From IMG/VR virus record IMGVR_UViG_3300032243_000035, positions 1 through 34,361 of that record: 34,361 bases of DNA; one strand, written 5' to 3'. This DNA is from a virus. Below are positions 12,001 to 13,089 of the stretch, in pieces. The notes under the pieces were generated by a model that was not told the origin of the DNA, did not search any database, and worked only from the letters and a program-made list of their open reading frames with translations. Each line of letters starts with the position of its first letter. Position 1 is the stretch's first letter. The position numbers were made by a program, and so were the translations under genes.

Positions 12001-12809
12001 ATGAGCTGGCTCTTTTCGCAGGCGCTGGTGGAGGAATACTTGGGGGAAAACTCCTTGGATGGCGAACAGTCTGCGCCGTTGAGTGGGAACCCTACCCAGC
12101 TAGCGTATTGTGCGCCCGACAAAATGACGGCCTTCTCCCGCCTTTCCCGATTTGGGATGACGTACAAACCTTTGACGGAAAGCCTTGGGCAGGAATTGTT
12201 GACGTTGTTTCGGGAGGATTTCCATGCCAAGACATCAGCATCGCAGGAAAAGGGGCAGGACTTGACGGAGAAAGTTCCTCAATGTGGTATCACATGGCGC
12301 GGGTGGTTAGCGAAGTTCGACCCCGATTCGTATTTGTGGAAAATAGCCCAATGCTCATTCATAGAGGAATCGGGCGAGTGCTTGGAGACCTTTCCTGTCT
12401 CGGGTATGACTCGCGATGGACTGTTATGGGAGCTTATGACGTTGGAGCGCCGCACCAAAGGGATAGAACGTGGATTATGGCGCACACCCGACACTGGGGG
12501 GGGGGGACATCAGGTCTGCACAAACAAGGCCAAAATCATCGAAAGAATGGTCAACCAATCCAAATCAGATTGGTCGACCAAGTGAACAATCCAAGACTTT
12601 GGCCAACGCCGGTACAGCGGATGTACAAAGACAACGGAAGTCCCTCGGAATACGCAAGGAACGAGATACCCCTAGCGGCACAGGTTGGTGGGCCATTGAA
12701 CCCCGATTGGGTCGAGTGGCTGATGGGGTGGCCGCCAGGGTGGACAGACTTAAGGCCATTGGAAATGGACAGGTATCAAGAGTGGCTGCAACAGCATGGA
12801 GAATCCTAA
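11997..12809 (+). CDS. DNA (cytosine-5) methyltransferase as sequenced (frame 0, 270 aa). The catalytic N-terminal half is joined to a WPTP/MGWPPGWT-type C-terminus and lacks motif X in this frame.
   Basis: Motifs:
- I: LFAGAGGG
- IV: GGFPCQDIS (Cys codon at 12225-12227)
- VI: FVENSP
- VIII: APHQRDRTW

The TTG start overlaps the upstream stop (TTGA). The ORF reads through the G11 tract as WGGGT. Confidence 0.8.
   Translation: MNELALFAGAGGGILGGKLLGWRTVCAVEWEPYPASVLCARQNDGLLPPFPIWDDVQTFDGKPWAGIVDVVSGGFPCQDISIAGKGAGLDGESSSMWYHMARVVSEVRPRFVFVENSPMLIHRGIGRVLGDLSCLGYDSRWTVMGAYDVGAPHQRDRTWIMAHTRHWGGGTSGLHKQGQNHRKNGQPIQIRLVDQVNNPRLWPTPVQRMYKDNGSPSEYARNEIPLAAQVGGPLNPDWVEWLMGWPPGWTDLRPLEMDRYQEWLQQHGES
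12001..12585 (+). CDS. Overlapping frame-1 ORF (194 aa as sequenced). Its protein-like N-terminal half would be completed by the frame-0 C-terminus after a -1 shift at the G tract.
   Basis: The ATG lies 8 nt after GAGGAGG, the best RBS geometry at this locus. There are 194 stop-free codons in the +1 frame of the methylase. The sequence (MSWLFSQALVEEY...SRLSRFGMTYKPLTES...LWRTPDTGGGG) has balanced composition. It resembles, from memory, stand-alone WPTP-type proteins. Confidence 0.5.
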   Translation: MSWLFSQALVEEYLGENSLDGEQSAPLSGNPTQLAYCAPDKMTAFSRLSRFGMTYKPLTESLGQELLTLFREDFHAKTSASQEKGQDLTEKVPQCGITWRGWLAKFDPDSYLWKIAQCSFIEESGECLETFPVSGMTRDGLLWELMTLERRTKGIERGLWRTPDTGGGGHQVCTNKAKIIERMVNQSKSDWSTK

Positions 12810-12817
12810 GTGAATAA
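12470..12817 (+). CDS. Frame-2 segment encoding the canonical C-terminus of a phage-type C5 methyltransferase (motif X). It is reachable from frame 0 only by a -1 shift or an extra G in the tract.
   Basis: WWAIEPRLGRVADGVAARVDRLKAIGNGQVSRVAATAWRIL matches the EP..GRVA.G...RVDRLK.lGN..VP ending typical of phage C5-MTases. No credible independent start. Confidence 0.6.
   Translation: MDYGAHPTLGGGDIRSAQTRPKSSKEWSTNPNQIGRPSEQSKTLANAGTADVQRQRKSLGIRKERDTPSGTGWWAIEPRLGRVADGVAARVDRLKAIGNGQVSRVAATAWRILSE
12496..12506. repeat. G11 homopolymer at the point where reading-frame content switches.
   Basis: Counted directly: acactGGGGGGGGGGGacat. Confidence 0.95.
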
Positions 12818-13046
12818 AAATGAAGCAAACAGACTTCTTGACAAACACAAAGAAACACGTCAACTTAGCTACGCTGACACCACAGCAGCGCTTAGAGCTA
12901 CTGGAGACTATGAAGACGATGGAGGCGCGGGAATGGATAAAGAGATACCGCAAGAAAGTGAAAGACCTTGGGAAAATGAATGCTTCCGGTTGGTTGTCGC
13001 AAGTCTTGTTAGACATCGAGAAAAAGCGTGGGTTAACCGCCGCTAA
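12810..13046 (+). CDS. Small ORF (78 aa, GTG start) in frame 0, immediately after the frame-0 stop.
   Basis: GGAG lies 8 nt upstream of the GTG. The N-terminus NEANRLLDKHKE..LSYADTTAALRATGD resembles, from memory, a common small phage protein ending in ...AL..TGD. It overlaps 12820-13089 almost completely. Confidence 0.35.
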   Translation: MNKNEANRLLDKHKETRQLSYADTTAALRATGDYEDDGGAGMDKEIPQESERPWENECFRLVVASLVRHREKAWVNRR

Positions 13047-13089
13047 TGATTTACGCAGGAGGATGAATGAGATACGCAGCTCGGACTGA
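12820..13089 (+). CDS. Small ORF (89 aa, ATG) in frame 1, starting 2 nt after the frame-2 stop.
   Basis: AREWIKRYRKK...GWLSQVLLDIEKKRGLTAANDLRRRMNE resembles, from memory, a conserved small prophage protein family. No SD is present, so coupling is likely. Overlaps the next gene by 23 nt. Confidence 0.5.
   Translation: MKQTDFLTNTKKHVNLATLTPQQRLELLETMKTMEAREWIKRYRKKVKDLGKMNASGWLSQVLLDIEKKRGLTAANDLRRRMNEIRSSD

Follow-up and report, generated by a model that had tools for sequence, protein, structure and literature searches.

C5 methyltransferases of the M.EcoHK31I type are encoded by two same-strand frames whose starts lie 4 nt apart, and these frames are thought to make the subunits of one enzyme. 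In Thermus, rpmH is wholly nested in rnpA, and both genes have been shown to be expressed (Feltens et al., 2003, as described in PMC9841429). Phage phiX174 possesses the de novo genes E and K, together with overlapping extensions of its genes A and C (reviewed in PMC8227390). A model of unidirectional prokaryotic overlaps has them arise by 3' elongation of the upstream gene more frequently than by 5' elongation of the downstream gene (Fonseca et al., PMC3887535). The pair of small frames that we describe here, ORFs A and B, belongs to the known class of phage overlapping genes, and its reciprocal arrangement is a variant of it.

Unlike the two frames of M.EcoHK31I-type enzymes, A and B belong to two gene families independent of each other, and their dual coding also occurs where no methyltransferase is present. 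To the extent that the Thermus pair is portrayed in PMC9841429, it shares with A and B the use of same-strand frames with start codons a few bases apart, a spacing of 4 nt (ATGAATG or GTGAATG) being present in 39/107 of the A/B homologs; it differs in that A and B each extend over the core of the other and have starts that appear coupled to upstream stops, and in that the expression of the phage pair is predicted from sequence. As in phiX174, we are dealing with same-strand phage overlaps, some of which arise by extension of existing genes. That phage, however, has a 5-kb ssDNA genome with nested or one-sided overlaps, whereas A and B reside in a 34-kb tailed phage, extend reciprocally and have living relatives that lack the overlap. 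The model of Fonseca et al. is matched by layouts in which A is extended and the N-terminal frame of B is closed (13 tree rows), while an extension of B alone was found in none of the 86 tree rows; in contrast to that model, in which no selection is needed for long phase-1 overlaps, stops are avoided here and residues are constrained. Strict de novo overprinting was considered and rejected: both cores exist as stand-alone genes, and only the extensions are new sequence.

The window, by which we mean the whole stretch of DNA that was analysed, is the complete 34,361-nt virus record IMGVR_UViG_3300032243_000035; it has direct terminal repeats at its ends, and its coding content includes a terminase, a portal, an Erf-like protein and an exonuclease. 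The relatives of this phage are uncultured, and one homolog is located on a 33-kb contig of a Burkholderiaceae MAG. Since this homolog is complemented by an A-core gene in the Limnohabitans phage DC33, the host is likely to be a freshwater betaproteobacterium. ORFs A and B are located in a short rightward (early) operon with the order Cro-like regulator, DUF1376/O-like replication protein, 77-aa ORF, C5 methyltransferase, ORFs A and B, endonuclease-like ORF, 109-aa ORF and HNH-like ORF; promoter and terminator scans yielded nothing above chance level. Elsewhere in the window, positions 5536-6696 (- strand) encode a further DNA methyltransferase (phrog_498) whose N-terminal domain is ParB-like, and a very acidic 88-aa ORF at 14206-14472 (+ strand) faces the late-gene strand and is overlapped by a Ser-rich antisense ORF. 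Locus L050 carries in its distal part, downstream of the operon, a long G-rich tract of short degenerate repeats. The A/B region comprises the following features.

12798-12801, + strand: GGAG, a Shine-Dalgarno-like word 8 nt before the GTG of A; such a word precedes A in 83/107 homologous loci.
12807-12809, + strand: stop (TAA) of the upstream frame-0 ORF, i.e., the C-terminus of the alternative-frame ORF of the methyltransferase; it abuts the A start, and its position is identical in all methyltransferase-containing homologs.
12810-13046, + strand: ORF A, 78 aa, GTG start, stop at 13044-13046; open in 110/110 homologs, with 400 database proteins called in this frame.
12810-12908, + strand: A core, residues 1-33, a two-helix hairpin ending in TGD; omega 0.12; present in other phages as a gene by itself (35-40 aa).
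12815-12817, + strand: stop (TAA) of the motif-X tail of the methyltransferase, 2 nt before the B ATG; in many homologs it forms an ATGA overlap with that ATG.
12820-13089, + strand: ORF B, 89 aa, ATG start, stop at 13087-13089; read at +1 with respect to A; the predicted protein is basic and has three helices.
12820-12903, + strand: N-terminal extension of B (residues 1-28), which overprints the A core; codons 2-28 stop-free in 110 loci; N15, L16 and L19 near-invariant.
12904-13083, + strand: B core, DUF7696-related, with the pattern EAREW ... WW ... RG ... DLR.RMN; omega 0.13; 47/63 homologs match PF24751.
12909-13046, + strand: C-terminal extension of A, which overprints the B core; a linker and one helix (53-76, low confidence) are predicted; omega 0.23; W54 invariant.
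13067-13333, + strand: next gene, a small endonuclease-like ORF in the third frame (phrog_93, E=2.6e-6).

An earlier, sequence-only reading of this region had given these starts and stops and a GGAG 8 nt from the GTG, all of which we confirmed on the sequence. Its two-frame overlap of about 225 nt proved to measure 227 nt, equal to 96% of A and 84% of B, with B at +1. The endonuclease-like ORF has its own AGGAGG at 13057-13062, starts 20 nt past the A stop and overlaps the end of B by 23 nt.

Our main homolog set consists of 110 distinct ungapped loci, nearly all found with B queries, with 54-98% nucleotide identity (median 71%). When their stop-free status was checked, as the sequence-only reading had proposed, both the A and the B frame turned out to be open in 110/110 loci, the third frame holding 3-13 stops. 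The first stop of A follows after 78-86 codons in 109/110 loci and after 74 in one, and B is stop-free over codons 2-85 in all 110. As a null we recoded one protein synonymously with the codon usage of neighbouring genes; the A frame then stayed open in 0.6% of trials given B, and the B frame in 1.3% given A. In a second dual lineage of 58 loci, collected with query P0242, the A frame is open in 56/58 and the B frame in 57/58, and more distant single loci are open in both frames as well (L049, L236, L237, L326-L329, L341, L358, L398 and L401). Database calls at these loci number about 127 in the B frame and 400 in the A frame. At the level of sequence, the overlap of A and B is thereby confirmed to exceed chance; A and B are a long same-strand overlapping gene pair with both frames conserved, whose translation is predicted.

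No conserved RNA structure was detected at the overlap (consensus energy -1.9 kcal/mol, no compensatory pairs, single-sequence z -0.3). We regard it as barely credible that one frame is the gene and the other a shadow, open by chance or as a DNA or RNA element. Although the Atlas recognition score for A is low, with no match, and gene callers annotate one frame at a time, such a shadow is at odds with the recoding nulls of about 1%, with the occurrence of both cores as stand-alone genes, with the 1-6 stops that a lineage with tandem genes gathers in the corresponding frames, and with the lack of RNA covariation.

Omega was estimated from 53 disjoint nearest-neighbour pairs of extant sequences, with differences classed by their effect in both frames, and amounts over the whole overlap to 0.18 for A and 0.17 for B. 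In single-coded neighbours, a non-coding -1 frame has a ratio of 1.97 and a non-coding +1 frame one of 0.48, and these served as baselines. The A tail, at 0.23 (CI 0.14-0.34; 0.12-0.72 across settings), compares with 1.97 at identical settings, whereas the B extension has a ratio of 0.31 (CI 0.15-0.60; 0.19-0.79 depending on settings) against a baseline of 0.48, with overlapping intervals. In the second lineage, the A tail shows little residue-level constraint (0.77, CI 0.28-1.7). These values point to purifying selection on both cores and, clearly, on the A tail; on the B N-terminus it would be weaker.

Because the ratio for the B N-terminus is not separated from its baseline, it is codon-level evidence that fills this gap. 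Control genes and the tandem lineage acquire stop-making changes as fast as synonymous ones; in the dual lineage none was seen. At 11 sites where a B-silent change would stop A, T is never present, while 52 sequences have T at the site where A ends; A Leu codons that would stop B are absent. Third positions of A are frozen across the B N-terminal extension. A22 and A30 accept several residues, with a codon that nearly always ends in T and thereby keeps leucines in B. Conversely, B50 accepts six residues with a codon that always ends in T, which keeps Trp54 of A, and the third base of the B64 codon is almost exclusively A or C, either of which encodes arginine in ORF A (Arg68). Trp54, Glu49 and Arg68 of A are preserved through changes unable to create stops. 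The Gly codon of TGD is GGA in 168/168 loci of the two dual lineages, and is GGC, GGT or GGG where the B extension is closed; the junction TGGAGAC as a whole is highly conserved. The suggestion of a second overprinted pair hence finds support in the window lineage, where both frames are kept open and constrained. The sequence-only reading had offered as an alternative that the recognisable parts are disjoint and only the ORF extensions overlap. Its anatomy was right, as the family cores are indeed disjoint (A 1-33, B about 29-87), but the extensions are not idle in the window lineage.

An N-terminal ATG for B is present in 93/107 loci, located 4-16 nt (mostly 4 or 10) after the A start, with 10 nt in the window; in the second lineage the two starts are 7-13 nt apart in 57/57 loci. 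The codon that creates this ATG ends in T in 41/41 and 57/57 cases, compared to 39% and 56% elsewhere. The remaining 14/107 loci lack the N-terminal ATG; a TTG at codon 7 is all they have. In the window, GGAG is placed 8 nt from the A start and 18 nt from the B start, and the latter distance makes it more likely that B relies on the stop 2 nt upstream.

These starts have to be weighed against a reading in which A is fully translated and B starts internally, at the ATG at 12910 or 12919, behind a GGAG formed by the Gly-Asp codons of A, so that only the A tail would be overprinted and the open N-terminal frame of B would be a by-product. We consider this unlikely. It would account for the fixation of GGA at Gly32, which forms the GGAG, for the presence of ATG or TTG at B31 in 107/110 loci and of ATG at B34 in 95/110, for distant B homologs aligning mostly from 26-31, for the shifting position of the N-terminal start along with its absence as ATG from 14 loci, and for a rate ratio of the B N-terminus that overlaps the baseline. 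The GGAG, however, is only 3 or 12 nt from the candidate codons, the second lineage possesses the 3-nt codon only, and L329 has neither. Moreover, GGA is not used by those lineages in which an internal start of B is demonstrable, and the reading leaves aside the avoidance of stops and the frozen Leu codons in B 1-28 as well as the specific retention of the N-terminal ATG. The TGD codons as a supplier of the B Shine-Dalgarno sequence in tandem loci were ruled out, the Gly codon there being GGC, GGT or GGG.

The sequence-only reading had coupled A and B to one each of two frames upstream. A two-frame methyltransferase does precede the pair in 17/107 loci and in 26/57 loci of the second lineage, and the layout there fits: the long alternative ORF has its stop immediately before A, and the stop of the catalytic ORF falls on or next to the B ATG. 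Where the methyltransferase is missing, the upstream gene usually ends on the A start (ATGA or TAATG) and does so in the B frame. Since most dual-coded loci thus follow an ordinary single gene, the pair is independent of two upstream frames, and the coupling holds only for the methyltransferase-containing part of the family. In the window, the two-frame C5 methyltransferase occupies positions 11997-12817 and contains a G11 tract (12496-12506) that swaps its frames; the tail ending before B is therefore reached only via another tract length or a start of its own. Homologs of this methyltransferase are open in both frames over 228-344 codons, with longest G runs of 4-15, and the tract may be phase-variable or mis-assembled.

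The relatives show further layouts. In 22 distant loci, A and B are tandem genes: A has about 40 aa and mostly ends just past TGD, and B starts within the last codons of A. Two short adjacent genes of this kind, with A ending soon after TGD, had been named beforehand as evidence against a second overprinted pair; they do exist, but are confined to this distant lineage, and are therefore relevant to the origin of the overlap rather than a refutation of it. As the tandem lineage carries the same two families without dual coding, it is an ideal control, and its shadow frames hold 1-5 and 2-6 stops, gained at the synonymous rate. B stands alone at L238 and L240. A stands alone or is followed in frame in MW202710 and DC33. 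In the former (MW202710.1; L483:3001-3333), a stand-alone 35-aa A core is annotated as 'ubiquitin-like protein mdY2 helical', and the next gene in frame (70 aa) bears a weak resemblance to B (P=0.019), which we treat as a lead only. The cultured Limnohabitans phage DC33 (PQ492659.1; L482:2989-3228, LBILNBIM_00012) lacks B and has an A-core gene whose tail is unrelated; its 39-kb record is classed as Inoviridae, a classification that looks wrong. A tree of the B core (55 columns) implies at least 4-6 changes of the state in which both frames are open, and is too weak for rooting or for ordering events.

An A-like N-terminus is fused in frame to a B core at three loci, L242:2001-2324, L235:1189-1443 and L243:2001-2300. 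The L242 fusion looks natural, while those of L235 and L243, the latter with several frameshifts, are probably frameshift or assembly artefacts. Such fusions, along with the strong conservation of the TGGAGAC junction, could be taken to mean that the A and B cores are made as one protein through programmed +1 frameshifting near TGD. This is very improbable, as the junction has neither a slippery run nor a conserved structure, tandem relatives make two proteins, and the open and constrained A tail and B N-terminus would be left without explanation.

A core-less lineage of 27 distinct loci (L324, L350 and L404-L481, around 1440-1700) keeps the A frame, -1 over B, open in 27/27 cases. Its start is coupled to the upstream gene, it runs into an ATGA overlap with the next gene, and its omega of 1.05 (CI 0.3-4.8) reveals no clear constraint on residues. 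This frame is a candidate for either a ribosome bridge or a newborn gene. Extended to the whole family, such bridging would mean that both frames are translated, with the extensions acting as open ribosome lanes that serve coupling and avoid polarity or stray restarts, and with amino acids that do nothing. The core-less lineage itself speaks for such lanes, as do the weak residue constraint that accompanies stop avoidance in the second lineage and the 12/110 loci in which A reaches codon 86, its stop overlapping the ATG of the next gene in those inspected. Coupling, however, requires overlaps or very short gaps and is almost abolished by about 20 nt (PMC10666635), and in most loci of the window lineage A stops 20-48 nt before the next gene, so that a pure bridging role does not explain the A tail there. 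Given also the retention of Trp54, Glu49 and Arg68 described above, we hold the lanes to be quite an unlikely explanation for the family, although bridging may explain the A frame of the core-less lineage.

Each of the two motifs that had been recognised as parts of known-type small proteins belongs to a real, separate protein family. The profile search proposed for B returned Pfam DUF7696 (PF24751) with E=9e-4 and 19.7 bits. Because this score is under the cut-off of 27 bits, we file B by profile similarity as related to DUF7696 and not as a member; its relative P0343 scores 34.1 bits. B and DUF7696 have the pattern EAR.W / RG / L...M in common, and B differs by a longer middle and the 28-residue overprinted N-terminus. 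In the alignment of homologs proposed for fixing gene boundaries, distant B homologs start mainly at position 26-31. For A, DUF7890 was discarded (17.3 bits, below the cut-off of 26, with only 3/27 A cores matching), and a sub-threshold match to the RuvA C-terminal domain was not used. The predicted fold of B consists of helices 21-50, 52-70 and 72-88 (mean pLDDT 88) with a basic core, residues 21-28 of the extension being predicted to lengthen helix 1; that of A is a two-helix hairpin (pLDDT 73-78) followed by a linker and a low-confidence helix. Prediction of an A-B complex gave a score of 0.01, which counts neither for nor against an interaction. No informative structural match emerged from Foldseek on PDB, a wide VIA search (best Z 6.8, generic helical) or sequence searches of solved structures; BFVD and Atlas searches returned uncharacterised relatives only and no functional homolog, and GenBank phages gave no match for either window protein. 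A literature search found no paper on the A or B families or naming DUF7696, a domain without known function. A B-frame homolog, P0093, bears the source name RlmE/FtsJ methylase, which nothing here supports.

On the basis of position, size and charge, we favour for both proteins a non-enzymatic, early accessory role in the replication/recombination operon. The basic three-helix protein B would bind nucleic acid or protein, and A, a helical hairpin, would act in that process as an adaptor or modulator, a weakly based proposal for which the chances are about even. The in-frame fusions offer a hint that A and B act in one process.

Collectively, we think it likely that the shared 227 nt are translated in frames 0 and +1 into parts of two separate small phage proteins, A and B. 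Stand-alone cores exist, and the general model in which stops are lost and starts shift (PMC3887535) allows for their extension; from this we infer a tandem-first order. The ancestral tandem genes would have been altered in two ways: A would have lost its stop and run over B, and B would have captured an ATG 4-16 nt after the A start and so run back over A. Through termination-reinitiation, ribosomes finishing the upstream gene or genes would begin again at one or the other of the two neighbouring start codons, which would link the expression of A and B. In the window lineage, the extensions would later have gained roles at the protein level, in B by lengthening the first helix and in A by adding a helix at the C-terminus. 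As a broader and more tentative proposal, which we deem possible rather than probable, two unrelated tandem genes were overprinted reciprocally, perhaps more than once, with both extensions functional and with one lineage keeping the overprinted tail after losing the A core.

Long same-strand overlaps are rarely documented in tailed dsDNA phages, and annotation retains one frame only. One abundant freshwater phage family displays tandem, one-sided, reciprocal, fused and core-less versions of two genes, and this series of layouts provides matched controls for studying the emergence of long overlaps and new coding sequence and the onset of selection on them. The A-core gene of DC33 offers an experimental handle in a cultured Limnohabitans phage. 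If the broader proposal is true, A and B would, together with the two-frame methyltransferase upstream, turn about 1.1 kb of the operon into two parallel, separately coupled lanes, and the family would constitute a living series leading from no overlap via full overlap to a newborn gene.
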